Of a stretch of 60,918 bases of DNA, positions 1-14,843 are shown one piece after another. The notes below the pieces were generated by a model that ran no database searches, had not been told where the DNA came from, and saw only the letters and a program-made list of their open reading frames with translations. The stretch spans positions 1 to 60,918 of IMG/VR virus record IMGVR_UViG_3300009180_000046. The stretch is one strand, 5' to 3'. Both the position numbers and the translations under genes were made by a program. The DNA comes from a virus (Duplodnaviria; Caudoviricetes). Each line of letters opens with the position of its first letter. Within the stretch, counting starts at the first letter, position 1.

Positions 1-281
1 CCAAGCAATAAATAATTATACAAATCTGCAAATCTTGATGACAAAGGTTCTGCTTGTTTTAGATCAGGATTCTTAATGTGTGCCTGAATAGAGCTCAATT
101 GCTTGTCAAAAAAGATTGACCAGACTTGTAATGGGGTGACACCTGCACGCTTTGCGGACTCCTTAAAATTGTTGAGGACATCTGCACTTTCTAGTGTGTA
201 CTCAGGTTGCTTTGCCTTTCTAATAGACATCGCATGATTTAAAAGAGTATCGTACTCTTCATTGAATTGTTCTTGTGTCAT
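1..281 (-). CDS. Nucleotide-modification-associated (Nmad1/DUF1599-like) alpha-helical protein, 3' end cut by window edge
   Basis: Manual translation from ATG at 281: MTQEQFNEEYDTLLNHAMSIRKAKQPEYTLESADVLNNFKESAKRAGVTPLQVWSIFFDKQ...RFADLYNYLLLG; K..EY....D.L.NF and D..NY pattern. Confidence 0.5.
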   Translation of the reverse strand, partial: MTQEQFNEEYDTLLNHAMSIRKAKQPEYTLESADVLNNFKESAKRAGVTPLQVWSIFFDKQLSSIQAHIKNPDLKQAEPLSSRFADLYNYLLL

Positions 282-283
282 GA

Positions 284-469
284 TTAAAATGTTATACCTA
301 ATATTTTTGTGCTACCTACTTTTATTGTTCCATTTTGCAATAGTCTTACTACCTCTAAAACCTTGTCCATTTCATCATTAGTAAGCATTGCTTGATGATA
401 ATCGCCATCTATTGTTTTTATTATTACGACCCCAGTTTCTAAAACCGCTTCATCTTTTTTTAGTTCCAT
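284..469 (-). CDS. hypothetical protein
   Basis: 61-aa ORF, tightly packed in the minus-strand early run. Confidence 0.65.
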   Translation of the reverse strand: MELKKDEAVLETGVVIIKTIDGDYHQAMLTNDEMDKVLEVVRLLQNGTIKVGSTKILGITF

Positions 470-475
470 TTTATT

Positions 476-607
476 TTAGTTTAAAAAGTCTTCACCCTTG
501 TAGTCAGGATGATTTTTGTTCATGTCATCTATGCCGTTTACCCACAGGTAAATAATTGGTGCAAGCACTAAAGCATGAATGATAAATAAAGCAATGTATG
601 TTATCAT
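476..607 (-). CDS. small single-TM membrane protein (43 aa)
   Basis: Manual translation MITYIALFIIHALVLAPIIYLWVNGIDDMNKNHPDYKGEDFLN; start overlaps upstream stop (ATGA). Confidence 0.7.
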   Translation of the reverse strand: MITYIALFIIHALVLAPIIYLWVNGIDDMNKNHPDYKGEDFLN

Positions 608-891
608 AGTGCGTAATCTACTGGTGCGTAAAATTTTTGTTGAATCCAACCTGACGCAATCTTGCGTCGTTTCTTGTGGTCTACGTATTTGTAAAAGCTA
701 AAATGCCCTTGCGTATGTCGGTGCAGTAGCACCTTCTTATCACAATCATCACATGTAGTGTACATGGTAGTCTTGTTGCCTGAGCGTTCAAAGACCTTAC
801 GCAAAACATTTACATCATGCGTGTGCCCACACCATGGGCATAGGGTGTTTGACTCCTCAAATCCCTTTCTTGATCTAAGCATATTTTTCAT
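604..891 (-). CDS. zinc-ribbon protein
   Basis: CPWC...CDDC motif pair. Confidence 0.65.
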   Translation of the reverse strand: MKNMLRSRKGFEESNTLCPWCGHTHDVNVLRKVFERSGNKTTMYTTCDDCDKKVLLHRHTQGHFSFYKYVDHKKRRKIASGWIQQKFYAPVDYAL

Positions 892-1136
892 TTATCTTCA
901 TGATTAAATCTATCTGACCTAGCCTCATGGTCTTGGTGTGGACTACCTAGTGCATACACCTCTATGCGTAATTTGTCTAGGTCATCAGTCGAAAGTTTAT
1001 TACTCAACCTATCCTCAATTAGTTCGTAAACTATTAGCCCAGCCATATCCTTTGCTGAGTCAAAATTAGGTACTACTTGATAGCATCTGCGTACCAAATC
1101 TTTTGCCTTATCATAAGGGCTTATTTTATTTTCCAT
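888..1136 (-). CDS. hypothetical protein, distant paralog of 8046-8258 and 59310-59540
   Basis: SPYDKAKDLV...SAKDMAGLIVYELIE resembles P.DKA.EL...AKQCALIAADEII. Confidence 0.65.
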   Translation of the reverse strand: MENKISPYDKAKDLVRRCYQVVPNFDSAKDMAGLIVYELIEDRLSNKLSTDDLDKLRIEVYALGSPHQDHEARSDRFNHEDK

Positions 1137-1270
1137 TAGTTATATTTGATTAAAAGGTAAATACTAATTACAGCACTAAGCGTGCCTGCTATGCCTACAA
1201 TAACACCGACAATAAATTGTCTAAAGGCGATCTCTGAGACCTCTTTGCAATTAAATTTCTCATTCTCCAT
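1136..1270 (-). CDS. small single-TM membrane protein (44 aa)
   Basis: Manual translation MENEKFNCKEVSEIAFRQFIVGVIVGIAGTLSAVISIYLLIKYN; stop overlaps next start. Confidence 0.6.
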   Translation of the reverse strand: MENEKFNCKEVSEIAFRQFIVGVIVGIAGTLSAVISIYLLIKYN

Positions 1271-1616
1271 CTAATTCCATTTGTTTAATGGCCCTCTCTT
1301 CTTGTCTTTGTTCAACAAGCGATAGCCCAGTGACTAAATTCTTTTTGCCTTTACTAATTAATTCCTGTTCAAACTCCTTCATCTTTTTAATTCCATAGAT
1401 CACCGTGGCATGCTCAACTGGGTATCCGTACCTCTCACAATATCTTTGTGTCTCAGAAATTTTAAAGCCGGCCTCATTCAGTAGAAAATAAAAATGTTGT
1501 CTGGCCCTAACCACAGAATGAATTCTGGTATTAAGAAAAATATCTTTCTTCTTAATTCTGTGACGATAGCACACCTTGCGTGCTATTACGTCCATTGCAT
1601 CTACGTCTGTTATCAT
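1260..1616 (-). CDS. DnaA C-terminal-domain-like HTH DNA-binding protein
   Basis: TRIHSVVRARQ...EHATVIYGIKK resembles DnaA domain IV (R.R..V.ARQ...DHTTVLH); probable start ATG 1616. Confidence 0.65.
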   Translation of the reverse strand: MITDVDAMDVIARKVCYRHRIKKKDIFLNTRIHSVVRARQHFYFLLNEAGFKISETQRYCERYGYPVEHATVIYGIKKMKEFEQELISKGKKNLVTGLSLVEQRQEERAIKQMELDGE

Positions 1617-1705
1617 GATAGAATTGTAATTAAAAAAACTACTAAGCAAACTAAAACTGATCCTAAAATTGACAGCACAATAGTGCCTTTTGTCTTGTAT
1701 GTCAT
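1613..1705 (-). CDS. 30-aa hydrophobic peptide
   Basis: MTYKTKGTIVLSILGSVLVCLVVFLITILS; ATGA-coupled at both ends. Confidence 0.55.
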   Translation of the reverse strand: MTYKTKGTIVLSILGSVLVCLVVFLITILS

Positions 1706-1803
1706 ACGTGTAAAATAAAATGTGAGTAAATAATTAAACCAATTGCCCAGGTTAACCACAAGGTTATGGAACTATAAATGATTATTTTTTCTTTCTTGTT
1801 CAT
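1702..1803 (-). CDS. 33-aa hydrophobic peptide
   Basis: MNKKEKIIIYSSITLWLTWAIGLIIYSHFILHV; ATGA-coupled to next gene. Confidence 0.55.
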   Translation of the reverse strand: MNKKEKIIIYSSITLWLTWAIGLIIYSHFILHV

Positions 1804-1984
1804 TGTTTCTATTTTTTAAATCATCTACATAAACACCCATAGATAACACAACTACACCGGCAGCAAAAAATAAAAATGTAGCAGTCAAGTATATTAAACA
1901 ACCTGAAATAAATGCAGTGGCAAAAAGCCCGTAGGAAATTTTAAATAGTGAATTCATAGTTTTAAAATAATAAGTCATAATCAA
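1772..1984 (-). CDS. small 2-TM membrane protein
   Basis: Hydrophobic ISYGLFATAFISGCLIYLTATFLFFAAGVVVLSMGV. Confidence 0.55.
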   Translation of the reverse strand: MIMTYYFKTMNSLFKISYGLFATAFISGCLIYLTATFLFFAAGVVVLSMGVYVDDLKNRNNEQERKNNHL

Positions 1985-2300
1985 TTAAGTTAATTGGAAT
2001 TGAAGGACGCACTTGATGAACCCACCATTCGGATCCGTCGTATTCACCACGATCGGACCAGGTGCCATCTTTGTACCATATAAAACCATATAATAATTGC
2101 CCCCCGTATCCAGAATCGTACGTAAAATTTAGTTCATGTAAAAAATTTTCGTACTCCTGATCTGAATAACCGGCCCTTAATTGAATTATCTTTTGTGTTT
2201 CATCTTCATCAAGGTTTGACCAATCGTCGCCATATTGTACATCCACGCAAAGTATTTCTTTGCCTTGTATCTCTTTTAAAAATTCATCTTTTGCATTCAT
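1962..2300 (-). CDS. conserved phage hypothetical protein
   Basis: Aromatic/Gly motif YDSGYGGQLLYGFIWYKDGTWSDRGEYDGSEWW. Confidence 0.75.
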   Translation of the reverse strand: MNAKDEFLKEIQGKEILCVDVQYGDDWSNLDEDETQKIIQLRAGYSDQEYENFLHELNFTYDSGYGGQLLYGFIWYKDGTWSDRGEYDGSEWWVHQVRPSIPINLIDYDLLF

Positions 2301-2581
2301 AGTTCTGTGTATTGATATATTATTTCATTAAAATCATTTAGTAATTGGCTTGATATATTTTCGTAGCTTGTCCATAGCCATTGAGGCCCGTCGAAGCATT
2401 GAAGTATATACTTTTTTGTTATAGGATCTTTGGTGAAGTGAAACTGTACCATTCTCCCGTTCGCTGTTGGTAGGTAAAATCTCCCACCCTTGAGTCCTGA
2501 TCTGATCAGCTCTCTGAATTGCTCTGTTCTTTCGTTCATTGTCCATGTAAGTTTGAAATGTTGCGTTGTTATACTGCTCAA
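2297..2581 (-). CDS. hypothetical protein (start uncertain; overlaps alternative ORF 2334-2657)
   Basis: Stop overlaps start of the 1962-2300 gene (ATGA). Confidence 0.5.
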   Translation of the reverse strand: MSSITTQHFKLTWTMNERTEQFRELIRSGLKGGRFYLPTANGRMVQFHFTKDPITKKYILQCFDGPQWLWTSYENISSQLLNDFNEIIYQYTEL

Positions 2582-2646
2582 TAAATTGATTTGTTCTATC
2601 GTCGTAATCGCAGGTACTCCCTATCTTAGTGTACTGAGTCCATTCG

Positions 2647-2799
2647 TTAAAATCCATGTTTTAATTGGTTTATGTGCCGGCCTATAGATATAATTCTTAG
2701 GGCCTTAATTAAATCTATTTCGTAATAATCCGCAAAGGCTTCAGCACTCAAAAAATTATTTAACCAGTGCAAATACATTTCTTCTATCTTATTTTTCAT
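2647..2799 (-). CDS. hypothetical protein (50 aa)
   Basis: Manual translation MKNKIEEMYLHWFNNFLSAEAFADYYEIDLIKALRIISIGRHINQLKHGF fills the gap. Confidence 0.65.
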   Translation of the reverse strand: MKNKIEEMYLHWLNNFLSAEAFADYYEIDLIKALRIISIGRHINQLKHGF

Positions 2800-2800
2800 T

Positions 2801-3010
2801 TTAAATTGCGTTTAAATGTTCTCTAACTTTTACCACACTCACGCCTACAGACGTGATATAATCTTCAAGCTCGTCATCCAGCGACGTATAGTAATTTTCC
2901 TCTACCAGGTCCCTGGTAACCTTATCTACCAGTTGCGTTTTAATTACGCCACCGATCGACGTAGTAAGGTATAGCGTGTATCCCTTTGTTTTAAATGATT
3001 TGCGTCCCAT
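2801..3010 (-). CDS. hypothetical protein
   Basis: 69-aa ORF in contiguous early run. Confidence 0.6.
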   Translation of the reverse strand: MGRKSFKTKGYTLYLTTSIGGVIKTQLVDKVTRDLVEENYYTSLDDELEDYITSVGVSVVKVREHLNAI

Positions 3011-3257
3011 GATATTTATTTAAAAATTGTTCTACGTTTAATTCTGAAACTATAGGCCGGTCTGTATTGGCGTAGCTGTACTCGTTTATGCCGCCGCCCA
3101 GGTCAGTTACTTCCAGGTTGTATACCTCGCTAAATGATCCGTCTAATTTAACCACGTGAGTATATAAACTCACATTTTTTTTGGTCCATTGCCTGTAAAC
3201 CAGGCCGTCGTAATATGGCCCTACTATTTGATCGCGATCTAAAATTTTATTTTGCAT
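2991..3257 (-). CDS. hypothetical protein
   Basis: 88-aa ORF with A-rich leader. Confidence 0.6.
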   Translation of the reverse strand: MQNKILDRDQIVGPYYDGLVYRQWTKKNVSLYTHVVKLDGSFSEVYNLEVTDLGGGINEYSYANTDRPIVSELNVEQFLNKYHGTQII

Positions 3258-3276
3258 GATTATTTTATTTAAATTA

Positions 3277-3660
3277 TTATCCGTATACTACTTCACCCAT
3301 TACAGCCAGTTGGAACCATACGTCTGAATCGTCCGCGTCATAATTTTCTGACAAAATATTGCCCAGTGTTTCTGGGTAATCTTTCGACATAATGCTAAAA
3401 GCATTTGTAATACTTTCATAAGTCAATTTTCCCAAAAGTTCTGGATCCTCTTCGTCTTCACTCTCAACATCAAATACTTCCAGGGCAAAATTTTTGTCCG
3501 CCAAAATCGACCTTGTTATGTTATCCACTAACGGATCACCTTTTATAAAATGCTTCCTGTCCATAGGTCCAACCATGTACCAGTAATTCGATCCGCCCTC
3601 CATTGCTGTACAAATTTGATCGTTAATAATTGAGTCTTTAATTTTGAATAAAAATTCCAT
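3277..3660 (-). CDS. conserved acidic phage early protein
   Basis: AMEGGSNYW...DADDSDVWFQLAVMGEVVYG motif. Confidence 0.75.
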   Translation of the reverse strand: MEFLFKIKDSIINDQICTAMEGGSNYWYMVGPMDRKHFIKGDPLVDNITRSILADKNFALEVFDVESEDEEDPELLGKLTYESITNAFSIMSKDYPETLGNILSENYDADDSDVWFQLAVMGEVVYG

Positions 3661-3662
3661 GA

Positions 3663-3881
3663 TTATATATTGTTTAAGATGAATGTTTCTATTTGACGGG
3701 CTCTAATATCCATTAGCCTAGTCGCTAAAAAATTATTTAAATATTCCTTTTCCGCGTTTACGTATCTAGGATTTCCCATAAAAAAATTTATTTCCTCGGT
3801 TCCCGTAGTTATATTAACTTTTTTGTTTTGGCTAATCAATACCTTGTATTTCATATTGCCCAGGTTAAATGTTTTTTGCAT
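3663..3881 (-). CDS. hypothetical protein
   Basis: 72-aa ORF abutting neighbours. Confidence 0.55.
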   Translation of the reverse strand: MQKTFNLGNMKYKVLISQNKKVNITTGTEEINFFMGNPRYVNAEKEYLNNFLATRLMDIRARQIETFILNNI

Positions 3882-3882
3882 G

Positions 3883-4104
3883 TTATAATTTTATTAAAGT
3901 TTTATTTAAATGATCCTTTGAAAATATTTTTGAATAGTCCAAAACGTCCCTAGTTATTTCCCAAAATCTGTACGTTTGCCCCTGGATCTTGCGCTCTAAT
4001 TGGATCGAATGCTCATTCATTTTTACTATTACATTCCATTCATACCGGCCCGTCCTGGTCCTTAAATATCCTACCTTGCTTCCAATTGTTAAATACCCTC
4101 TCAT
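3883..4104 (-). CDS. hypothetical protein (SH3-like beta pattern)
   Basis: 73-aa ORF, LTIGSKVGY... start. Confidence 0.55.
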   Translation of the reverse strand: MRGYLTIGSKVGYLRTRTGRYEWNVIVKMNEHSIQLERKIQGQTYRFWEITRDVLDYSKIFSKDHLNKTLIKL

Positions 4105-4106
4105 GA

Positions 4107-4298
4107 TTATTTTATTTTAACTATTTTAAATTCCGTTTCTGTATTGTCTTTTATTATCTGGTCGATCTTACCTAGGTTTTCGCCTGGTATCATGGTAGCA
4201 TAAATTAAATTTTCTACTTGAGATCCTTTAGATAGGTCCAGGGCTTTAAATTTATTTTGGCCCTCAAATTTTGCGTATAATCTGTAATATGTTTGCAT
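4107..4298 (-). CDS. hypothetical protein
   Basis: 63-aa ORF with A-rich leader. Confidence 0.6.
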   Translation of the reverse strand: MQTYYRLYAKFEGQNKFKALDLSKGSQVENLIYATMIPGENLGKIDQIIKDNTETEFKIVKIK

Positions 4299-4314
4299 TT
4301 TATTTTTTGTTTAT

Positions 4315-4338
4315 GGTCCAGGGTTTGACACCTGGACC
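4315..4338. other. intergenic perfect 8-bp hairpin (processing or termination signal)
   Basis: GGTCCAGG-gtttgaca-CCTGGACC. Confidence 0.55.
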
Positions 4339-4348
4339 TGGTGAAATT

Positions 4349-5071
4349 TTATTTTACTACGAAGCCGCTGGTATCAAACCGGGCCTTTCCTTTGGCCTTT
4401 AGTCCTATTATTACGCCGGTATTAGTTAGCATTAGATCGTCGGCCTGGTCGCCGTCAATTACCGGCGTGCCTAGGTATTGCGCCGGCATTGGTTTTTTAT
4501 GATCGAATACTACAGAAACATTATAGCCTAATTTCAGGGCCTCTATGCATTCGGCTTCATTAGTTTCTGATCTAGAAAAAGTAAGCGTATAACGGCCGGC
4601 ACCGGCGTATTTTTTGGCCTTGTTTAGGCTTTTAGTATAATCGTAATATTCCAGGTTTGGGAATTGCTCTATAATATCTACGCCGGTCCTGTTTTTTAGG
4701 ATCGCTATAAAATCCAGGTCGCTGGTTCCGTTTAATCTAATAGCTACCTTTTTACCTAGTTTAACGGCGCGTTTATTTATGTTCGTTAATTCCCGGACCA
4801 GTTGCGCGCTGAAATTGTCCTTATCATATAGATAAAAATTTGTTTTGTTGATCCGGGCCGCCTGGACGTTTGAAAAAATACCCATTCCGGCAGTATCCAG
4901 GCACACAAAAACACAGCCAGGTGAAGCGTCCGGGCAAATATTTATTTTGCGATCGTTTTTAGTAAACGGGGATAAATAAAGAATATTTGTTTCCAGGAAA
5001 TTTTTAGCTGTTTTGGCGTTTGTGTCTCCTTTAGATAATAATTTAGCTACTTTTTTAAATTGCGTTTCCAT
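4349..5071 (-). CDS. Gp88-family (radical-SAM-like Fe-S) phage protein
   Basis: ICPDASPGCVFVCL Cys cluster; IRLNGTSD, YYDYTK, LTFSRSE, IDGD..D, GLKAKG motifs. Confidence 0.75.
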   Translation of the reverse strand: METQFKKVAKLLSKGDTNAKTAKNFLETNILYLSPFTKNDRKINICPDASPGCVFVCLDTAGMGIFSNVQAARINKTNFYLYDKDNFSAQLVRELTNINKRAVKLGKKVAIRLNGTSDLDFIAILKNRTGVDIIEQFPNLEYYDYTKSLNKAKKYAGAGRYTLTFSRSETNEAECIEALKLGYNVSVVFDHKKPMPAQYLGTPVIDGDQADDLMLTNTGVIIGLKAKGKARFDTSGFVVK

Positions 5072-5098
5072 GTTTTTGTTTTTTTTAAGGTGATTAAT

Positions 5099-5386
5099 TT
5101 ACCAGGTAAGTTTTTCTATTTCGTATCCCATGTATTTGGCGATCGCTGTTAACTGCAATATTTGACTATTGCATATTTTTTGGCTGGTGCAGTAAGATTC
5201 GCCTAAAAAATATTTTAGCTCTCCAGATTGACGGCCTAAACATTCATATTTTGAATGATAATAGGCCAGGGAATTTTTTAGCTCTCTTAAATTTTCGCTC
5301 TCTTTTACAGCGCGGTGATTTAAGATGCTAAAGCCTTGTAATGCTTTTAATTCATTGAATAATTGCGTTTTTGTCTTGTTCTTCAT
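5099..5386 (-). CDS. hypothetical protein, first substantial early gene
   Basis: 95-aa ORF downstream of the early promoter candidate. Confidence 0.6.
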   Translation of the reverse strand: MKNKTKTQLFNELKALQGFSILNHRAVKESENLRELKNSLAYYHSKYECLGRQSGELKYFLGESYCTSQKICNSQILQLTAIAKYMGYEIEKLTW

Positions 5387-5442
5387 TAGTCTAGTATTTT
5401 AGTAGATTATTGCGTTTTTGTGGCTGTTTTTGTTCCACATTT

Positions 5443-5473
5443 CAAAGTAACAAAAAATAAATTTAATATACAA
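5443..5473 (-). promoter_or_regulatory. candidate early promoter (Bacteroidota sigma-A type)
   Basis: Minus strand TTG-N20-TTACTTTG, near consensus TTTG-N19-21-TAnnTTTG. Confidence 0.45.
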
Positions 5474-5782
5474 TACAAATAGTAAAAAACTTTTTAATCT
5501 TTTTTACGATATATTTTAAATATAGGCTATTTGATCGAATAGGGCTATTAACAGGCAAAAATATTTTGGCGGCTGTTTCCAGGTAGCTAAAAATAAATAC
5601 AGGGATTTAATTTTTGTTCCTGGTTCAGGTAGTGGTAAGGCGTCCGGCCTGGTTCCCTGGTTCCCTGGTTACATTCGATCGCCAGGCAATCGCGGGCCGG
5701 CTGGTCCGGCGTCCTGTTTACCTGGTAGCACCTGGAACCAAATAGACTAATCACCTGGAGAGATCCGGACGAGCAATCGGGT

Positions 5783-5805
5783 AGCACAGCATAGCACAGC
5801 ACAGC
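5783..5805. repeat. short tandem repeat (AGCAY)n at the strand switch
   Basis: agcac agcat agcac agcac agc. Confidence 0.6.
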
Positions 5806-5942
5806 TAGGGAAAAGCTAAAAATTCCAAAGCAAAAGTCTCAAACTCGACCCCCCACTACCAAAATGATCGCGTTTCCCCCGACGGGCCCGCAGTTTAAAA
5901 TGTGGTTGGTACCCCAAACCCATATTTATCTAATAAAATTTT

Positions 5943-5950
5943 TAACTTTG
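5943..5950 (+). promoter_or_regulatory. Bacteroidota -7 promoter element
   Basis: TAACTTTG 24 nt before ATG 5975. Confidence 0.6.
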
Positions 5951-5974
5951 CGTAAACATAACCCCACAACACAA

Positions 5975-6115
5975 ATGGCAAAAATGATGAAAGAGTATGG
6001 TGGCAAGGAGAAGTACGCTTCGAAGGCTGCTATGATGAAGCACGAGAAAAAGGAAGGCAAGAAGGTAGAGAAGATGGAAAAGAAAAATGTCTTTCCAAAG
6101 ATGAAAAAGAAGTAA
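5975..6115 (+). CDS. small Lys/Met-rich basic protein (46 aa)
   Basis: MAKMMKEYGGKEKYASKAAMMKHEKKEGKKVEKMEK...; own promoter and terminator. Confidence 0.7.
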   Translation: MAKMMKEYGGKEKYASKAAMMKHEKKEGKKVEKMEKKNVFPKMKKK

Positions 6116-6127
6116 TATTTTTCTTGA

Positions 6128-6160
6128 AAGCCCAGGTTCAAAAGACTTGGGTCTTTTTTT
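6128..6160 (+). terminator. intrinsic terminator
   Basis: cccagg...cttggg stem followed by T7. Confidence 0.65.
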
Positions 6161-6232
6161 GCCCAATTTTATCGTTGTACTTTTTCAAGATGAATTGTAC
6201 TATTTGTAAAGTTGTACACAAATGATGTTGAG

Positions 6233-6417
6233 TTGTGTACAAAATATTTTAAAGTTTACATTTATAACTTATTGATATATAACTAGTTATAGTTTATATT
6301 ATTCTTTTATGTACAAAATGAACAAAATATATAAGGAAAATAGAAAAATTTTTTTTTCTTAAAAAATAAAAAATATTATTTACGCAATGGGGGGTAAAGT
6401 TCTACATTTGTACACAA
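6233..6417. repeat. origin-like element, copy 1 (diverged direct repeat of 58811-58994)
   Basis: ttgtgtacaaaat.ttttaaagtttacatttataactta...catttgtacacaa aligns end-to-end with 58811-58994. Confidence 0.85.
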
Positions 6418-6436
6418 ATATATTTGTGGCATCATA

Positions 6437-6468
6437 TTTGTTTGGTGTTACTATTGTATATAAATTTG
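6437..6468 (+). promoter_or_regulatory. groEL promoter (-33 TTTG / -7 TAAATTTG)
   Basis: TTTG-N20-TAAATTTG, 18 nt before ATG. Confidence 0.65.
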
Positions 6469-6486
6469 TAACAAATAAAATCTAAC

Positions 6487-8043
6487 ATGATAGTAAAAGA
6501 CATCGTCTTCGGAAGTGAAGGCAGACAGAAATTAATCAAGGGTGTCAATACAATTGCTAATGCAGTTGGCTCAACCCTAGGAGCTCGTGGTCGCACGGTG
6601 CTTATTGAATCGGAGCAACACATTGGTGGCATCACAGTTACCAAGGATGGCGTGACGGTTGCTAAGTCAATTAACTTATTAGACCCGGCTGAGAACCTAG
6701 CGGTAATGATCATGCGAGAAGCGTCTGAGAAGACAGCTAACTCGGCAGGTGATGGGACTACCACATCTATGGTGCTGGCACAAGCCATCATCCATGCTGC
6801 GATGGGAACGCTGACAAAAGAGGACAATACCACACAGGTGCTACGTGACGTGCAGTCTGCTGCTCTAAAGGTGGCCGAGGAGCTGACGGCTATGTCGACA
6901 GAGATTACATCAGACAAGTTGGTGGATGTCGCAACTATATCCGCAAATGGCGACAGCGAGATTGGTAAGATTATAGCTGATGCGTATAATCAAGTTGGTC
7001 TAAGTGGCGTGGTGACAGTTGAGAGTTCGGCAACTGCCGAGACATATGCTGAGGTGATAAGTGGGATGAAGATAGACAGAGGCTTTGCAAGTAAGTACTT
7101 TGTGACAGACCACAAGAAGCAAGAGGCTGTCATGGACAAGCCATACATCTTAGTCACAGACCAACCTGTTACAAACATCAATGACATCTTGCCAATCCTA
7201 GAGTTTATACACCATGGCAGAGGCTCGCTAATTATTATTGGTGAGTTAGATGAGAATGCACTCAACACATTAAATGTGAACAAGATAAAGAGTGGTCTAA
7301 AAGTATGCACTATTATTCCTCCATCATTTGGCTATAAGCGTCATCAGATTATGCAGGACATAGCAATAGCTACTGGGGCTAAGTACTTCTCGGAGCAGAC
7401 TGGTGACAATTTGCTAATGGCAACAATTGACGACTGCGGGCGTGCAAGTAAGGTGGTGAGCTCTAGGTTCAATACTATTATATTCGACGCAGAGGGTGCA
7501 GGTGATGAGCGTGTGCAAGAGCTACACGAGCAGTTAGATGTGGAGACGCAGCCGACCGAGAAAGAATTCTTAAAAGAACGCATCGCTAATCTAGGTGGGG
7601 GCGTGGGTGTCATTAAGGTGGGTGCTAACTCTGACATTGAGCAGAAGGAGAAGAAGGACCGGGTGGATGATGCGGTGTGTGCAGTACGTGCAGCACTAGA
7701 AGAAGGCATCCTTCCAGGTGGAGGGGTGGCTCTAAAGGACATCGCAGCGAGCCTTGAGGTGGAGAACAAAGGCACCGAGATATTACAAATGGCTATGCTC
7801 TCACCTATGATCAAGATACTATCTAATGCAGGCATAGATGTGGATGGGTCAGACTTTGATGAGGGCAGACAATTATCTCAAGAAGGCATAGGGGTGAACG
7901 TGGCTACAGGGGCATACTGCCACATGATGAGCGTTGGCATCATTGACCCAACTAAGGTGACTAAAGAAGCTCTTAAGAATGCGGTGTCAGTAGCAACGAC
8001 ACTTCTATCAACTGAGACGGTCATTACCAACATTAGAGCATAG
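6487..8043 (+). CDS. groEL: chaperonin GroEL
   Basis: VTKDGVTVAK, AGDGTTT, ERIANLGGGVGVIKVGA, GILPGGG, GIIDPTKV motifs; no GGM tail. Confidence 0.97.
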   Translation: MIVKDIVFGSEGRQKLIKGVNTIANAVGSTLGARGRTVLIESEQHIGGITVTKDGVTVAKSINLLDPAENLAVMIMREASEKTANSAGDGTTTSMVLAQAIIHAAMGTLTKEDNTTQVLRDVQSAALKVAEELTAMSTEITSDKLVDVATISANGDSEIGKIIADAYNQVGLSGVVTVESSATAETYAEVISGMKIDRGFASKYFVTDHKKQEAVMDKPYILVTDQPVTNINDILPILEFIHHGRGSLIIIGELDENALNTLNVNKIKSGLKVCTIIPPSFGYKRHQIMQDIAIATGAKYFSEQTGDNLLMATIDDCGRASKVVSSRFNTIIFDAEGAGDERVQELHEQLDVETQPTEKEFLKERIANLGGGVGVIKVGANSDIEQKEKKDRVDDAVCAVRAALEEGILPGGGVALKDIAASLEVENKGTEILQMAMLSPMIKILSNAGIDVDGSDFDEGRQLSQEGIGVNVATGAYCHMMSVGIIDPTKVTKEALKNAVSVATTLLSTETVITNIRA

Positions 8044-8045
8044 AT

Positions 8046-8258
8046 ATGGAACCAATAGACAAAGCATTAGAGTTAGTTAACAAGTTTGCAATATATCTAA
8101 GAGCAAACTTAATGTATGATGAAGATGCTGACGAGGATGCTAAACAATGTGCACTAATTGCAGCGGATGAAATAATAGAATTTATGTCACCTATGGTTAA
8201 CAGTAAACAAGCTTATGATTATTGGGACGAAGTTAAAGAAGAAATAGAGAAGCTATGA
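8046..8258 (+). CDS. small acidic helical protein (P.EKA.EL...EVK.EIEKL family)
   Basis: Paralog of 59310-59540; flanked by 15-bp direct repeats. Confidence 0.75.
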   Translation: MEPIDKALELVNKFAIYLRANLMYDEDADEDAKQCALIAADEIIEFMSPMVNSKQAYDYWDEVKEEIEKL

Positions 8259-8283
8259 TGGGAAAGTTCAACATTAGAGCATA

Positions 8284-8577
8284 ATATTGCACTTAGTGGT
8301 AGAGAAAGCCGACAACTATATCATTAGGCATATAAAAGTATAATATATTGCACTTTTATATGCTATTTGGTATAAAATGTAAACTATAATTTACAAATTT
8401 GTAAATTATTTGCATGAATTTTTCCGAATTATCATGCAGAATTTGCCAAAATATGTAACAAAATGATGCCAAATTCGGAAGTAATACTACTGATATTGCA
8501 GAAAAAGTTAACTTATAAGTTAACATAAACTAAAAATACAAACCAATATTGGGATCAAAATGCTAAAAATACAAACC
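8284..8577. repeat. non-coding array of unrelated palindromes and short direct repeats
   Basis: Inverted repeats at 8328-8363, 8386-8409, 8411-8438, 8507-8524, 8543-8552; direct repeats 8284/8345 and 8530/8563. Confidence 0.8.
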
Positions 8578-8578
8578 G

Positions 8579-8740
8579 ATGGAAGAGTTATTTGAGTTTT
8601 ATTATGAACATTCTCACGAGTTTAAGGGCTACTGGCCTGATACACTTGAAGAGTTTTGCTATAAGTACGAAAATGACGATAACTTCCGAGATACTTGGAA
8701 CAAAAAATATATTGAACACTTAAATAAAATAAAAAAATGA
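8579..8740 (+). CDS. small acidic aromatic-rich protein (53 aa)
   Basis: Manual translation MEELFEFYYEHSHEFKGYWPDTLEEFCYKYENDDNFRDTWNKKYIEHLNKIKK; stop overlaps groES ATG. Confidence 0.6.
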   Translation: MEELFEFYYEHSHEFKGYWPDTLEEFCYKYENDDNFRDTWNKKYIEHLNKIKK

Positions 8741-8994
8741 AAGTCATTGGGAAAAATTTATTGATCGTTCCTCAAGAGGAGGAGACAAAGTCTAAAGGTG
8801 GGTTGATTATGACCGGTGTAGACGCAAATGAGCTACGTTACAAGAAAGCAACCGTGGTATCACAAGGCTCGTTAGTGGATGGCATCAAACCAGGCTCATT
8901 TATTTACTTCGACCGTGCAGCTGGCCACAGCATTCGCATCAATGAAGACCTATACACGGTCATCACTGAGAAAGATGTGGTGGTGGTGCTTTAA
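8737..8994 (+). CDS. groES: co-chaperonin GroES
   Basis: EETKSKGGLIMT mobile loop, ATVVSQG, IKPG, VITEKDVVVVL. Confidence 0.9.
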   Translation: MKVIGKNLLIVPQEEETKSKGGLIMTGVDANELRYKKATVVSQGSLVDGIKPGSFIYFDRAAGHSIRINEDLYTVITEKDVVVVL

Positions 8995-9000
8995 AATATT

Positions 9001-9124
9001 AGTCAGGTGGCGGAACGATTGCTCTAAAAGTTTAAAAGCCGATGGAGTTGTTTTGGTTAGACGCAATAAATGTAATAAGTCTATAAAGCATTTATTCTTA
9101 CAGGTTCGAATCCTGTCCTGACTA
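9001..9124 (+). ncRNA. tRNA-like RNA with inserted D-loop hairpin and non-canonical anticodon arm
   Basis: Acceptor AGTCAGG/CCTGACT; T-arm ACAGG-TTCGAAT-CCTGT; D-arm GCG..GG..CGC; 8-bp stem with 16-nt loop in place of a 7-nt anticodon loop. Confidence 0.75.
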
Positions 9125-9628
9125 AAAATCTTTATTAAGTCTATCAATGACCCTGTCATATTGTCGTTTGGCAAAGTGATGGGGTTTATTGTTAATAGGT
9201 TTGATGTCAGACAGATTAGGAATCTCTCTTTCTCCCTGCAACATCTCATAAACTTGCTTCATTAGCGACTTGGCCTTAAAGGATAGCTCAAAAATAGCCC
9301 GCTGACCAGGCTTAGGCTTTCTAAAGTGTATAATTAAGCCCTTATTCATCAAATCTCTCTTGCGATCCTGCGTAAATCCAAAGATTTGGGCATACTGGTC
9401 GAACTGATGGTTATCAAAAATGTGTTCAGAGTAGAGATAGCATAGCATCTCAAAGTCTTCTAGGCTCAGTCCATGCTTATGACGCACCCATGCACGCACT
9501 ACTTTAATGTATTTAAGAAAGTCTTTGTCAACCTCTGGTCGCACGGCAACTATTGGTTTTTTCTTGTATACACGCACTTTGATAGCCTTAGACTTTATAG
9601 CCCTTGGCTTCATATATGTTTTGATCAT
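9122..9628 (-). CDS. putative winged-HTH (MarR-like) regulator
   Basis: GLSLEDFEMLCYLY...LMNKGLIIHF...IFELSFKAK wHTH pattern; own promoter. Confidence 0.6.
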   Translation of the reverse strand: MIKTYMKPRAIKSKAIKVRVYKKKPIVAVRPEVDKDFLKYIKVVRAWVRHKHGLSLEDFEMLCYLYSEHIFDNHQFDQYAQIFGFTQDRKRDLMNKGLIIHFRKPKPGQRAIFELSFKAKSLMKQVYEMLQGEREIPNLSDIKPINNKPHHFAKRQYDRVIDRLNKDF

Positions 9629-9632
9629 TTGA

Positions 9633-9665
9633 TTTGATTTAATATTACAAAATTACTTATCTTTG
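9633..9665. promoter_or_regulatory. back-to-back divergent promoters
   Basis: Minus TAATTTTG (9648-9655); plus TTTG-N21-TATCTTTG (9658-9665). Confidence 0.6.
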
Positions 9666-9684
9666 TTGAATAATAAATAGTATT

Positions 9685-9882
9685 ATGGAAAAGCCAAAAA
9701 GCAAAAGAGTCAATATTTTAGTTGATAAATCTTTTAATGTACCATTAGACAGTCTTAGTAAAATTAATTCTGAAAAATTTTTTAATAATAATTTAGAAAA
9801 AACTAAAGATAGACTTAAAAAACAGTATTATGGAGTTCGTAATTCATCTATCCCATTAGCCCCAACACAATTCCCAGACTAA
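9685..9882 (+). CDS. small basic protein with C-terminal R..(S)IPLAPT motif
   Basis: 65-aa ORF after promoter. Confidence 0.65.
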   Translation: MEKPKSKRVNILVDKSFNVPLDSLSKINSEKFFNNNLEKTKDRLKKQYYGVRNSSIPLAPTQFPD

Positions 9883-9896
9883 TAATAAATAACAAT

Positions 9897-10208
9897 ATGG
9901 CAAAGCAAAAACCAAGTTCAATGACGACAGTTGGCGAACTAAAGAAGACAGTTCGTAATATGACTCGTGAAAATACAGAACGCGAAGATTATCGCACAAT
10001 GTTGCAAAAAAATATCAACAATGGAATGCCTGATCGAATGGCTATAGACGCTGTAAAAGATATGAAGCAGATGCGTAAAGAGAAAGCATATTACTATCCA
10101 ATCATTCAGAGATATCAAGGCTTAATTGATTCAAAAACAAAGGGTCGTGATACACCACTTCCTTCGTCTGAAGGATTGTTCGATAAAATTAAAGGATACT
10201 TTAAGTAA
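9897..10208 (+). CDS. small basic protein with GRDTPLP motif
   Basis: 103-aa ORF, MAKQKP start. Confidence 0.7.
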   Translation: MAKQKPSSMTTVGELKKTVRNMTRENTEREDYRTMLQKNINNGMPDRMAIDAVKDMKQMRKEKAYYYPIIQRYQGLIDSKTKGRDTPLPSSEGLFDKIKGYFK

Positions 10209-10588
10209 TGAAAAATGTTATTAAGAAAGCTACTAAGTTTGAATCCGCTAAATCTTTAGAAGGATATATGAGCTTTTTAAAAGGTAACGTAGGTAAAATA
10301 GATAATATGGAAAAGAAATCAAAGGTTACTCAAACAATTAAAAGCACTAAGGTTAATGCAAAAAAACTTTGGGGTTATGCTAATAATTTAGAAAAAGAAT
10401 CTGAGGCTAATAAGTTCATGAGCAATGTGCTAGATAAAGCGGGCATGAAAAAATCTTCTGATGGATACTTTCGTTTATCTGAAGAGCAAGGATCAAATTC
10501 TACTCGATATAGAGATAAGGCAATTAATGCAATAAATAAAGCAACAGGCAGGGATATTCCTTTGCCTGCAACCGAATGGAATAGTTAA
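10208..10588 (+). CDS. basic protein with GRDIPLP motif
   Basis: 126-aa ORF, TAATG-coupled. Confidence 0.7.
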   Translation: MKNVIKKATKFESAKSLEGYMSFLKGNVGKIDNMEKKSKVTQTIKSTKVNAKKLWGYANNLEKESEANKFMSNVLDKAGMKKSSDGYFRLSEEQGSNSTRYRDKAINAINKATGRDIPLPATEWNS

Positions 10589-10589
10589 T

Positions 10590-10733
10590 ATGAAAAATCA
10601 AGAAAAAACACCAATGACACGCCCAATGCCTAACACGTATATGGGCATCACTAAACTTTCAGCTGCTGGTAAAGCAATGAAAGTTGCTAAAGCAGTAAAA
10701 ACTGTGAAGGCAATTAAAAGAATGTCTAAATAA
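10590..10733 (+). CDS. 47-aa basic (histone-like) peptide
   Basis: Manual translation MKNQEKTPMTRPMPNTYMGITKLSAAGKAMKVAKAVKTVKAIKRMSK. Confidence 0.6.
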   Translation: MKNQEKTPMTRPMPNTYMGITKLSAAGKAMKVAKAVKTVKAIKRMSK

Positions 10734-10742
10734 AAAAATAAC

Positions 10743-11210
10743 ATGGCAAAGCAAAAACCAGGTAAAATGTCAGGTACTCTAAGAAGAATAGAGAGTACTA
10801 TTTTAAGTAAACCCAAATATCCTCAATCTGAATTAAAGATGATTGGACAACCGTACGATTACGATGCAATCGGATTTAAAAACTCTCAGATTGACATGAT
10901 TAAAAGTAAGATGTCCGCTCAAATGAATGAGATGAGTGATATTATTGATCCAAAGTATGCTCCTAAATCACCAGAAAAAGCAGGCCGTGATGTATGGACT
11001 CAAGATTATCCAGGTTCTGGTCGTTCAGAAGGTTTTTTTGAGCCTAATAAACGTAATGCAATTATAGGAGAAGTATATAATGCAAAAGGACCATTAACAG
11101 GCAAGACTGGTTATAGTAAATCTGCTGCTAGTAAATATGGTACAGATTTGGGTAAGATGCAAGGAGACTTATCTTACGGAACAAGAGAGCGTTTTAAGAA
11201 GAAAAAGTAA
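10743..11210 (+). CDS. basic hypothetical protein
   Basis: 155-aa ORF, MAKQKP start. Confidence 0.7.
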   Translation: MAKQKPGKMSGTLRRIESTILSKPKYPQSELKMIGQPYDYDAIGFKNSQIDMIKSKMSAQMNEMSDIIDPKYAPKSPEKAGRDVWTQDYPGSGRSEGFFEPNKRNAIIGEVYNAKGPLTGKTGYSKSAASKYGTDLGKMQGDLSYGTRERFKKKK

Positions 11211-11392
11211 TGCAAGGCTTAGGAGACGTAGTCACCAAAGTTACGCAGGTAACAGGAATAGCAGCCGCTGTTAAAGCCATAGTGGGTGATGACTGCGGCT
11301 GTGAAGCTAGAAGAGAACGCATGAATGCAATGTTCCCATTCCAAACAAAAAAGATAAAAGATGGCAACAACACCCGCCTGGACAAGAAGTGA
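11210..11392 (+). CDS. conserved small phage protein (GLGD...DCGC..R...N..FP)
   Basis: Recognisable motif of Bacteroidota-type phage late regions. Confidence 0.75.
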   Translation: MQGLGDVVTKVTQVTGIAAAVKAIVGDDCGCEARRERMNAMFPFQTKKIKDGNNTRLDKK

Positions 11393-11654
11393 AGGCAAAT
11401 CAAAATCTGGCGGCTTAAATGCGAAGGGTCGTGCATCTTACAAAGAAGGCACACTTAAAGCTCCTGTTAAAGAAGGCACTAATCCACGTCGTGTGTCATT
11501 CGCTGCACGGTTTGCAGGAATGGCTGGGCCAATGAAGAAACCAAATGGCGAGCCGACTAGAAAAGCCTTGGCTTTAAAGGCTTGGGGATTTGGTAGTGTT
11601 GAATCAGCAAGAAAATTTGCTAATAATAATAAGAAAGATGGCAAAACTAAATAA
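11361..11654 (+). CDS. conserved basic phage protein
   Basis: PAWTRSEGK..GGLNAKGRASY...RRVSFAARF...ALKAWG. Confidence 0.75.
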   Translation: MATTPAWTRSEGKSKSGGLNAKGRASYKEGTLKAPVKEGTNPRRVSFAARFAGMAGPMKKPNGEPTRKALALKAWGFGSVESARKFANNNKKDGKTK

Positions 11655-11772
11655 ATTAGGTGTTGAGAATTCCTTATGGGATAACATTCGGGCTAACAAA
11701 GGGTCAGGCAAGAAGCCTACCAAAGAAATGTTAAAGCAAGAGAAGAAGATTATTGCTAAGAAAAAGAAGTAA
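11638..11772 (+). CDS. 44-aa basic peptide
   Basis: MAKLNKLGVENSLWDNIRANKGSGKKPTKEMLKQEKKIIAKKKK. Confidence 0.65.
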   Translation: MAKLNKLGVENSLWDNIRANKGSGKKPTKEMLKQEKKIIAKKKK

Positions 11773-12047
11773 TGAAAGCAACTGCAAAATTTTACGCAAC
11801 CCATCCTGAGGCTCGCAAGAAAAGGCTTGAATATCAAGCTGACTATAATAAACGTCCTGAGCAACTAAAGAAACGCATTGAGCTAAATAAGATCAATCGT
11901 GACCGTGGGCAGTATGCAGACAAAGATGGCAAAGACATGAGCCATAAAAAGAATGGACGTGTTGTTGAGGAATCAGCTAGTAAAAACCGTGGATCTAAAT
12001 CAAATGCTCCAGGTGACAGACGTGCCCGAGGGACTAAAAAAAAATAA
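11772..12047 (+). CDS. basic protein with degenerate HNH-like motif
   Basis: DGKDMSHKKNG...ESASKNRG. Confidence 0.55.
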   Translation: MKATAKFYATHPEARKKRLEYQADYNKRPEQLKKRIELNKINRDRGQYADKDGKDMSHKKNGRVVEESASKNRGSKSNAPGDRRARGTKKK

Positions 12048-12048
12048 T

Positions 12049-12056
12049 TAACTTTG
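12049..12056 (+). promoter_or_regulatory. -7 promoter element
   Basis: TAACTTTG 20 nt before ATG 12077. Confidence 0.55.
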
Positions 12057-12076
12057 TTACTTAAACAAGATAAGAA

Positions 12077-12340
12077 ATGGGAGTTTTAAATTATATGCAG
12101 TCTGGCCGTGCGGCAGCTGTCACACCATCCAATACCGATAATATTCCTAGTGTATCAGGAGGAACAAATGATGAAGGATGTATCCTTTACATTGGGGGAG
12201 CTGGTAACTTAAAGGTGTTAACAATTGGTGGCGATGAGGTTATCTTCTACGCAGTTCCAGCAGGTACAACTCTTCAAGTTCGTGTAGTAAGAGTTTTCTC
12301 TACAGGAACAGCAGCTACCAACATTGTTGCTCTTTGGTAA
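12077..12340 (+). CDS. head spike-base / decoration protein (RcGTA Rcc01079-like)
   Basis: AAAVTPS...LYIGGAGNLKV...VPAGT.L.VRV.RV..TGT.AT.IVALW. Confidence 0.7.
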   Translation: MGVLNYMQSGRAAAVTPSNTDNIPSVSGGTNDEGCILYIGGAGNLKVLTIGGDEVIFYAVPAGTTLQVRVVRVFSTGTAATNIVALW

Positions 12341-12504
12341 TGACGGAAGACGATTTGAAAATAGGGATACTGAACATGACGAGCTTAATGCTGTCATTTA
12401 CAACTATCGAGACTACACTGCGTGTTCTCTTGTTAGGTATATCAATTGCGTACACAGGGTTTAAGCTATATAAAATTATAAAAGAAAGAAGTAAATGGCT
12501 TTAA
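12340..12504 (+). CDS. putative holin (54 aa)
   Basis: Manual translation MTEDDLKIGILNMTSLMLSFTTIETTLRVLLLGISIAYTGFKLYKIIKERSKWL. Confidence 0.55.
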   Translation: MTEDDLKIGILNMTSLMLSFTTIETTLRVLLLGISIAYTGFKLYKIIKERSKWL

Positions 12505-12740
12505 AAGATATTTTTAAAGACTCTAATGACATCAACGAGCAATCAGTTGCAGCATTTATTGCAATTGGCTTAGTTGTTATTATCACCATTGTGGATGTTG
12601 TAACAGGCGTACTTGGTCGTGAATTAGTTATTAAAGAGTTTATTTTTATTTCTCTTTTAACATTTGCTGCTGCAGCCTTAGGTATTGCAGGATATAAAGC
12701 ATTAAATAGTAAGTCAAATGGCGAAGGCGAAAGCGAGTAA
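12495..12740 (+). CDS. 2-TM membrane protein (holin-like)
   Basis: Two hydrophobic helices; lysis-region context. Confidence 0.65.
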   Translation: MALKDIFKDSNDINEQSVAAFIAIGLVVIITIVDVVTGVLGRELVIKEFIFISLLTFAAAALGIAGYKALNSKSNGEGESE

Positions 12741-12843
12741 TGAATCCAAGAAGATCACCTTTGGTGTAAGACGCAAGGGTAAGCATTCAAAGACAAGTGG
12801 CCCAAAAGACAGACGTACAAAAAAAAGTAGAGGCCAAGGATGA
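12718..12843 (+). CDS. 41-aa basic peptide ending RGQG
   Basis: Manual translation MAKAKASNESKKITFGVRRKGKHSKTSGPKDRRTKKSRGQG. Confidence 0.6.
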   Translation: MAKAKASNESKKITFGVRRKGKHSKTSGPKDRRTKKSRGQG

Positions 12844-12952
12844 TGAAAGCTGCCATATATATTGTTTCGTTTATCGTTGCTATTGCTCTGCTTATTGATA
12901 TTTATTTTGTGTATTTACATTTCTTTGACAATCAAAAAGCTAGACAAATAAC

Positions 12953-13213
12953 ATGGCACTACCAGTATCATTCAAAGACTTTGCAAAAAACCCAGTAGTA
13001 GGCACATTATTTCTTGCTTTAGCTGGGATTTCTTATTTATACATTGATGTTAGAAATACTTTTACGCAACAAATAGAAAGACAAAATGGCAAAATCGACA
13101 AAATGGAAATCAAAGTGGATGCGTGTACTAATCAGCTACGTCGCTCAGATTCTCTCCTCTCAGCTAGTGCGAGCAAAATCATGGTTCTACAACAACTTGG
13201 TCAAATAAAATGA
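12953..13213 (+). CDS. TM + coiled-coil lysis protein (holin or inner-spanin-like)
   Basis: N-terminal TM then heptad region. Confidence 0.55.
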   Translation: MALPVSFKDFAKNPVVGTLFLALAGISYLYIDVRNTFTQQIERQNGKIDKMEIKVDACTNQLRRSDSLLSASASKIMVLQQLGQIK

Positions 13214-14804: not shown

Positions 14805-14819
14805 ATTTGCGTATTTTTG
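14802..14819 (+). promoter_or_regulatory. tandem -7 elements upstream of tail fibre
   Basis: TAAATTTG and TATTTTTG. Confidence 0.5.
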
Positions 14820-14843
14820 CTAGATAATAAGCAAAGAATATAG

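Follow-up and report, generated by a model that had tools for sequence, protein, structure and literature searches.

Phage genomes usually lose restriction-type palindromes, and clusters of Dam sites are known as methylation switches at E. coli oriC, with SeqA, and at pac and oriR of phage P1. In clusters of the oriC and P1 pac type, the number of sites matters more than any single site, and the phage uses the mark for timing. Self marks also fall on such motifs: Dnd/Ssp phosphorothioation occurs at GATC and GGCC, and DISARM methylates CCWGG. Here, we describe an island of methyltransferase-type palindromes at positions 2900-5770 of the virus record IMGVR_UViG_3300009180_000046 (the window, below, is this complete 60,918-bp record, a linear virus contig that CheckV rates as complete). 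The evidence shows an island that is selected at the DNA level, fixed in position, and variable in motif between relatives. Like the oriC and P1 pac-type clusters, it is a local excess of methyltransferase targets in a control region (9 CCWGG in 5387-5863 versus 0.8 in shuffles). Those clusters are 100-250 bp long, noncoding, and built on a single motif, whereas the island occupies 3-6 kb, runs through recoded genes, combines several motifs, and changes its motif between relatives. A methylation switch is a short noncoding element; here, 20 of the 32 CCWGG sites lie in coding DNA, and the island extends over 2.9 kb.

Other described systems share single features with the island. The motifs of the Dnd/Ssp and DISARM self marks overlap those of the island, and they may also share a logic in which some marks suffice, which would reward many sites. 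Iteron and terminase-binding arrays are also oriented short repeats in a divergent intergenic region, with a length that varies between close relatives, but the core of the island differs in being a perfect palindrome of 4-5 bp that also recurs through kilobases of coding DNA. Restriction-site avoidance, as treated in the site-representation passages of PMC6286503, deals with short palindromes of this kind; outside the island the window genome conforms to it strongly, and the island reverses its sign. Those passages do not mention local enrichment. The leading regions of conjugative plasmids, in the text of PMC13478746 that deals with them, and the early ends of T7-like phages are first-exposed DNA, as the island may be, and resemble it in their small early or antidefense genes and deviant composition; the plasmid leading regions are described there as neither palindrome-depleted nor palindrome-enriched. 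Among the papers listed in our literature search, no title or abstract describes restriction-type palindromes that are locally enriched in the early region of a phage.

The original prediction rested on hand counts, which proved exact: CCWGG occurs 11 times in 2900-4300 and 21 times in 4301-5770, CCGG and GGCC occur 15 and 11 times in 4301-5770, and GATC occurs 23 times in 2900-5770. The gradient and abrupt drop that it described are also present. Counted from position 1, CCWGG per kb runs 0, 1, 3, 6, 13, 11, 1, 1, and so on; the final island CCWGG is at 5754, and the following one does not appear until 6132. As had been noted, the sites occupy both kinds of DNA, with 20 of the 32 CCWGG in eight coding sequences (CDS), 9 in the noncoding region 5387-5863, and 3, together with 2 overlapping GGWCC, in a 50-bp intergenic gap at 4299-4348. 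The region 5387-5863 is a divergent control region between a leftward early operon (genes left of ∼5400) and rightward genes on the GroEL side (right of ∼5860), and the cumulative GC skew has its minimum there. Its 9 CCWGG (0.8 in shuffles, z 9.6) form an array of 180 bp at 5579-5758, at the head of the early operon, which includes three copies of CCTGGTTC (TRF, 5648-5670).

For the whole island, 300 dinucleotide-preserving shuffles of 2900-5770 served as the null. CCWGG was observed 32 times against a shuffle mean of 3.0 (z 17.1), GATC 23 times against 5.2 (z 8.6), and CCGG 17 times against 8.1 (z 3.3), and none of the 300 shuffles reached these counts; GGWCC was observed 10 times against 2.8 (z 4.5, reached by 1 of 300) and GGCC 16 times against 8.7 (z 2.7, reached by 4 of 300). 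CGCG (7 versus 6.0) and GCGC (6 versus 6.5) are unenriched. CCWGG, GATC, CCGG, GGCC, and GGWCC together give 98 distinct site starts, or about one per 29 bp, and a strong excess over the island's own composition is limited to CCWGG, GATC, and GGWCC, the last mostly overlapping CCWGG. The claim that the early arm is saturated with all classic palindromes was thus too broad: it stands for CCWGG and GATC (with GGWCC), which are strongly enriched, but CGCG and GCGC are merely unavoided. The flanks of the 32 CCWGG reveal no extended motif, just a weak W-CCAGG-T preference that is the same outside the island.

The other 55 kb, scored against 30 dinucleotide shuffles, avoids CGCG (3 versus 34.5), GCGC (8 versus 59.4), GGWCC (5 versus 37.8), and GGCC (30 versus 80.7), and leaves CCWGG (33 versus 47.2) and CCGG (46 versus 45.8) unavoided. 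The contrast between the island and the rest of the genome in CGCG, GCGC, and GGCC is therefore largely due to their avoidance elsewhere. Within the island every tested palindrome is at or above expectation, so that restriction-site avoidance, which holds in the other 55 kb, fails there. The pattern has two layers, a genuine enrichment of CCWGG and GATC and a lifting of the avoidance that holds elsewhere.

The coding sites were compared with three protein-preserving null models, each applied to the eight island CDS with 500 draws. These nulls give 2.2-4.2 CCWGG against the 20 observed: 4.2 when synonymous codons are permuted within the island (z 9.5) and 2.2 when the codons follow the usage of 15 long genes outside it (z 18.8). 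Coding GATC number 20 against 8.6 (z 4.8) in the control that keeps the island's own codon usage. The shuffling check proposed with the original prediction is thus passed by CCWGG and GATC, whose excess survives both the dinucleotide shuffles and the codon controls. If a permitted place is any position where some synonymous spelling could yield the motif, CCWGG is realized at 19 of 41 permitted places in the island, at 1 of 25 in the early genes at 284-2799, and at 22 of 489 (∼4.5%) in the 15 long genes. The island and long-gene figures are 20/64 and 73/776 for GATC, 13/47 and 36/797 for CCGG, and 14/39 and 16/804 for GGCC. One gene densely recoded in this way is discussed below as GP88 (4349-5071, minus strand, 240 aa, PF17338), and six small early genes, all on the minus strand, also carry recoded sites (4107-4298, 3883-4104, 3663-3881, 3277-3660, 2991-3257, and 2801-3010).

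The frame xxC-CWG-Gxx holds 15 of the 20 coding CCWGG. CTG makes up 23% of Leu codons in the island versus 3% elsewhere, and it spells 12 of the 14 Leu codons preceded by C and followed by G but 0 of the 39 in which neither flank fits; xxC-CTG-Gxx is realized at 12 of 24 permitted positions in the island versus 0 of 238 elsewhere. In the codon alignment of GP88, conserved residues differ in their spelling: Phe-Leu-Glu is spelled ttC CTG Gaa in the window and ttt ttg gaa in the closest relative, and Asp-Leu is gaC CTG G in the window and GAT Cta in relatives with GATC-type islands. Given the recoding and the codon controls, neither codon adaptation nor composition can have caused the excess of CCWGG and GATC. 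As full explanations, chance and composition are ruled out by the dinucleotide shuffles and the three codon controls, and codon adaptation is ruled out because CTG is almost confined to site-completing contexts.

Relatives were collected with GP88. The protein query led to 4 viral contigs, and a five-sequence profile then gave the best 80 of 262 confirmed relatives, whose loci carry L numbers below (L113 and L114 are the same contigs as L026 and L027, and L112 is MW202828); besides the window (G000), three complete relative genomes were examined whole. In an unbiased scan for palindrome clusters, 17 nonredundant loci had a cluster reaching p<1e-8 and flanks of at least 3 kb, and the strongest cluster lies over the GP88 start in 10 of the 17, compared with 3.5 by chance. 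In the relatives, the sharp start of the island is in the divergent intergenic region, 1.0-1.5 kb upstream of GP88, and its core reaches ∼+1.5 kb. Islands of the GATC type tail to ∼+5 kb; the island of L032 measures ∼6 kb versus 2.9 kb in the window. The motif differs by lineage. L025-L028 have 33-41 CCWGG per 2.5 kb and a noncoding array of ∼13 CCAGG at 11-17-bp spacing; L032 and L034 are of the GATC type with cGATCc arrays (69 GATC versus 18.5 in L032); all CCGG of L048 and L049 are within the island (10/10 and 15/15); and CGCG, GCGC, GCSGC, or CGWCG is the island motif in others. Noncoding site arrays are found in L026, L032, L034, and L049. The expectation that islands of relatives would share the position but differ in motif by lineage was thus borne out. 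Four changes of the CCWGG label are required on the GP88 tree, including one for a pair of loci with a tandem array, and at least three separate branches carry CCWGG.

In the uncultured freshwater podovirus MW202828, the first early gene is not a GP88 homologue, and 36 kb of this phage contain 0 GATC, 0 CCGG, and 2 CCWGG. Its divergent region (17700-18200) nevertheless holds a cluster of CGCG, CGWCG, and GGCC with an (ACGCG/CGACG)n array and five ATCGACATA repeats. This island without GP88 shows that the phenomenon goes with the control region and the start of the early operon and not strictly with GP88.

The sites are also kept between relatives. Coding CCWGG are conserved at 18 of 21 places between L026 and L028 (0.48 for other 5-mers) and at 19 of 21 between L026 and L025 (0.58), and coding GATC at 35 of 49 between L032 and L034 (0.49). 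Enrichment, synonymous placement, and conservation together indicate selection at the DNA level, as the original prediction had supposed. Close relatives diverge fastest in the 1.5 kb upstream of GP88, where array length also changes. Between L026 and L027, this stretch has an identity of 0.76-0.87 versus 0.91-0.99 in the other 500-bp bins.

Elsewhere in the same loci, the island-enriched motifs have a median observed/expected ratio of 1.15 (17 locus-motif pairs), compared with 0.80 for 1225 pairs with other palindromes (Mann-Whitney p 2e-5); this absence of avoidance fits marks that would have no cognate cutter. Motifs that are eliminated genome-wide stay eliminated inside the islands, as for GCGC in L032 (0 versus 11.7) and GGCC in L026 (0 versus 6.5).

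The original prediction saw no methyltransferase in the window, which agrees with our Pfam scan of 70 of the 72 open reading frames (ORFs), where no methyltransferase matched. Six-frame searches with PF00145, PF02086, and PF01555 returned nothing in G000, G002, and G003, the last two being complete GATC-type relatives; G001 has one C5 enzyme distant from the island, and its island is weak. None of the 66 ORFs of at least 130 aa scanned in six island loci (up to 10 kb each side of GP88) matched a methyltransferase. With regard to the genome ends, assembled contigs from four metagenome runs, aligned to 1-14000, mark no molecule starts or ends and bridge the island boundary (5382-5939 and 3838-5937), the window record is linear without end repeats, and the 55-127-bp end repeats of relatives are of assembly size. 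In several T7-like pelagiphages, as in Roseobacter and Mesorhizobium phages, the GP88 homologue is found 0.2-1.8 kb from the start of the linear record; in L5-like mycobacteriophages it is close to the right end. The case for a leading-end position of the island is circumstantial and comes solely from this place of GP88 in the records of cultured phages.

Every additional site is a risk against a Type II cutter, so many sites are sensible only for a reader satisfied by some marks or for a bulk property. The island motifs belong to the classic 4-5-bp palindromes that Type II and solitary methyltransferases recognize. We tentatively favor the possibility that selection has built, at the head of the early operon, an array that acts in cis as a target for DNA-modification enzymes of the host, because its motifs are perfect 4-5-bp palindromes, several unrelated ones are co-enriched, the same two recur independently, and they behave as if they had no cutter. 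The modifying agents would be encoded by the host, either as solitary Dcm-/Dam-type methyltransferases or as the modification half of a defense system. With many sites, the patch would carry host-type marks even if just a fraction were modified in a fast-replicating phage, and it would carry them where the infection's reading begins. Such any-of-many logic could work in two ways: the patch may present modified self to a reader that checks DNA near first contact, or it may allow marked parental DNA to be told apart from unmarked replicated DNA for the early operon. We infer the modification of the sites, the identity of the reader, and the first exposure of this DNA. A bolder form of the idea, which we regard as doubtful, is an epigenetic passport, a kilobase-scale patch with codons and spacers that would be continually respelled to maximize targets for the modification enzymes of the current host lineage. 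Partial modification of the progeny would then leave many host marks on the first-read DNA, which would defeat or inform a reader asking whether any mark is present, but not a cutter asking whether any site is unmarked. GP88, at the center of the island, may act on island DNA.

Several observations weigh against the host-modification reading. When a motif must exceed the dinucleotide composition of the island itself by a strict margin (z≥5, with 7 or more sites), just 19 of 75 loci qualify; among them, CCWGG passes in 8 (four near-copies, and two that are one tandem array), CCGG in 4, and GATC in 3. L055 and L056 pass solely through one 29-bp tandem array. No island is present in the cultured GP88 phages examined, Pelagibacter phage HTVC134P and Puniceispirillum phage HMO-2011, two phages with marine alphaproteobacterial hosts. 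The intergenic arrays look like protein-binding iterons. GATC is enriched in the island yet mildly avoided in the other 55 kb (108 versus 169.5). In contrast to L032 and L026, the window lifts avoidance in its island, where CGCG, GCGC, GGCC, CATG, and CTAG are at expectation; if the host had cutters for these motifs, the island should be lethal. The clues to the host are just one Spirosoma prophage match and one contig of a Bacteroidia metagenome-assembled genome (MAG), and we know of no any-of-many reader acting on CCWGG or GATC in Bacteroidota. The window and L001 are collinear, but most flanking matches have a DNA identity of 74-85%, compared with 69-77% in the island, and this greater divergence, taken with the lifted avoidance, suggests that a mosaic history may overlie the general phenomenon in the window.

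Two apparent islands turned out to be repeats of another kind. The CCWGG cluster of L055 is not a dispersed island: at 5769-6100, just downstream of GP88, a 29-bp unit is repeated 11.4 times (also in L056), each unit with the CCAGGTAAA of the L025-L028 arrays. The TCSGA cluster of L058 was likewise set aside, as it is a recurring paired repeat; eleven TCSGA pairs with 9-bp spacing are distributed along the early region (4611-14980) and look like a repeated regulatory element.

The main rival, because the noncoding arrays look like iterons, is an array for a sequence-specific DNA-binding protein of phage or host that has nothing to do with modification; the array might serve an early regulator, act as a recognition region for replication or packaging, or bind a protein that nucleates on the noncoding array and spreads over the sparser sites in the genes. 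We consider this rather unlikely. The island does sit in a divergent control region that is the fastest-diverging stretch between close relatives, and the repeats of the intergenic arrays are oriented, each unit exceeding the palindrome in length (CCAGGTAAA in L025-L028 and L055; the three CCTGGTTC in the window), and in MW202828 the additional ATCGACATA repeats adjoin the CGCG array. The first early gene of the window (5099-5386, minus strand) encodes an all-helical protein of 95 aa with no family match, and among the loci examined its only homologues are in L026 (9354-9632) and L027 (9348-9632), which have CCWGG islands and belong to another GP88 clade; a scan of viral contigs added no further contigs. 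However, the gene is absent from the closest relative, L001, and also from L025 and L028, which have CCWGG islands without it, and the model of the 95-aa protein (pLDDT 81) has no informative fold match. One protein would not read all the unrelated palindromes that are co-enriched (CCWGG, GATC, and CCGG in the window; CCWGG and CTAG in L026), and the motifs are 4-5-bp perfect palindromes of the restriction and methylase kind, unlike longer operators. A binding array also does not account for the independent recurrence of the same two motifs.

We find it improbable that the sites are a functionless by-product of a mosaic, recombination-prone segment with GC-ending codons and relaxed avoidance, possibly through GC-biased conversion or codon adaptation for early expression. 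The composition of the island invites this explanation. It is the genome's largest dinucleotide-signature outlier (delta* 278 at 4001-5000 versus a genome median of 96), its CpG rho is 1.1-1.3 compared with 0.5-0.9 outside, the codons Ala GCC, Gly GGC, Pro CCG, and Arg CGG/CGC are used more often, CGCG and GCGC equal the island's own dinucleotide expectation, and the identity to L001 is reduced, as given above. Plasmid leading regions, in the text of PMC13478746 about them, are likewise reported to be GC-rich, codon-adapted, and not consistently palindrome-depleted. The by-product model accounts for the CGCG, GCGC, and GGCC contrast in the window, but it fails for CCWGG and GATC, which exceed the control that keeps island codon usage. 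It also does not predict that CTG is nearly confined to site-completing contexts, that the sites are better conserved than other words, or that noncoding arrays share their motif with the recoded genes, and GATC-type islands lack the GC-rich shift and still avoid CGCG and GCGC.

The original prediction had also offered a decoy, in which dense sites that enter first would occupy restriction enzymes or load a methyltransferase while the genome follows. The very high density falling off from one fixed boundary, the scarcity of several motifs in the rest of the window genome, and the place of GP88 homologues at the leading end of cultured T7-like phages are in its favor, but our results make it highly improbable. 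A single cut in unique DNA destroys the genome, and because CCWGG occurs 33 times in the other 55 kb, a CCWGG cutter would kill anyway; a restriction site in the first-step-transfer DNA of phage T5 makes that phage sensitive. The strongly enriched motifs are unavoided elsewhere, and the truly eliminated ones are missing from the island too, namely GATC and CCGG in MW202828 (0 each in 36 kb), GCGC in L032, and GGCC in L026. Least credible of all is a mutational drive in which very-short-patch-type repair turns near-cognates into methyltransferase sites: most island motifs contain C, and E. coli, a species with Dcm and Vsr, has an excess of CCWGG, but near-cognate CTWGG/CCWAG counts are normal (8 versus 7.2 expected), which rules it out as a full explanation, and such a drive would act genome-wide and not over 3 kb, would leave GATC islands unexplained, and does not fit with the conservation of the sites.

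GP88 itself belongs to a family that is very widespread as the first early gene (4219 representatives at E≤0.001). It matches PF17338 over residues 11-238 with 125.7 bits (cutoff 24.4) and PHROG 1617 with an E value of 2e-60, and three Cys residues, C46, C53, and C57, are invariant in 61 sequences as CX6CX3C. The structural model has a pLDDT of 95.4, and its top VIA match is the spore photoproduct lyase 4fhc_A (Z 7.0, 180 aligned residues, root-mean-square deviation 4.7). The first 20 structural neighbors all carry names of radical S-adenosylmethionine (radical-SAM) enzymes and have Z scores of 4.8-7.0, and a Z below 8 may reflect a common arrangement. Spore photoproduct lyase is a DNA-repair enzyme. 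GP88 does not contain the canonical radical-SAM motif CX3CX2C; Foldseek returned nothing at E≤0.001, a sequence search against solved structures returned nothing, and an atlas search found just unnamed and DUF7227 clusters. Judged by the model, GP88 may have a radical-SAM-like fold with a partial TIM-barrel core, although the scores are middling.

The edges of the island have features of their own. A GC-rich element lies directly outside the sharp boundary (5840-5930); its RNA-fold signal is absent (z -1.2 and -0.35), and comparable G/C runs, judged by eye without alignment, occur at the island edge in L032 and L034. On the other side, the gradient tails off through 2000-2899, where GATC is still raised (7 in 2001-3000) and CCWGG is near background. 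An ORF at 5587-5802 (minus strand) that overlaps the CCWGG array has no family match. Past the control region, a small and very lysine-rich frame at 5976-6115 (plus strand) is the first rightward gene and is followed by a terminator-like hairpin at 6130-6152. Among the early proteins, the product of 3277-3660 (minus strand; 127 aa, PHROG 2355, homologue in L037) is strongly acidic, with 26 D+E versus 9 K+R, a charge pattern of the kind seen in DNA-mimic antirestriction proteins. Small early proteins encoded at 1260-1649 (minus strand) and at 5400-5801 of L047 resemble the DnaA DNA-binding C-terminal domain; the match in the window is below the Pfam cutoff. In L032, two genes resembling NUMOD4/HNH homing endonucleases (5331-5834 and 7493-8032, minus strand) flank GroEL and are absent at that place in the window.

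The window encodes GroEL/GroES, a 737-aa large terminase, a portal, virion proteins, ribonucleotide reductase, a primase-helicase, and a Sak/exonuclease pair. Sequence identity of the terminase is 67% with its MW202828 counterpart and 44% with terminases from phages of Flavobacterium and Cellulophaga. Of 24 public runs listed, 6 contain half or more of the words sampled from 2000-9000, and all six are freshwater metagenomes. No kin closer than L001 (82% identity) was found in a metagenome scan, which returned 6 loci at 55-59%; a genome scan for nearer kin gave one Spirosoma prophage and two MAG fragments. No tRNA is present in the window, and Rfam gave nothing near gathering score in 5000-6600. 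The 3 kb at 14251-17250 contain 62 GTAC within an 1816-aa collagen-like tail-fiber gene, a coding-repeat effect that recurs as the same clusters in G001 and G003. In crAss-like phages, the parts of 10.1101/2020.03.07.982082 on early expression describe an injected polymerase that transcribes the early genes, long early noncoding transcripts, and an early promoter motif that was undetected. The protein encoded at 38110-38838 (plus strand) has a crAss muzzle C-terminal domain by Pfam, and near it lies a 2225-aa ORF (41506-48183, plus strand). This ORF has no DFDxD motif and no family or solved-chain match at E≤0.01; its identification as a crAss-like injected RNA polymerase is unsupported, as both DFDxD and a solved relative are missing.

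Here, a defined 3-kb module reverses the avoidance rule through recoding that is strong enough to dictate codon choice, and the reversed rule, together with a motif that is swapped between relatives, points to a selective agent unlike a classical enzyme that cuts whatever is unmarked. The work also flags GP88 as a radical-SAM-like candidate enzyme in a very common first early gene. If host modification is the agent, the island motifs would be a readout of host methylomes from sequence only, which would offer a new route for linking uncultured freshwater Bacteroidota phages to their hosts and would hint at defense or regulatory readers that work by any-mark logic.

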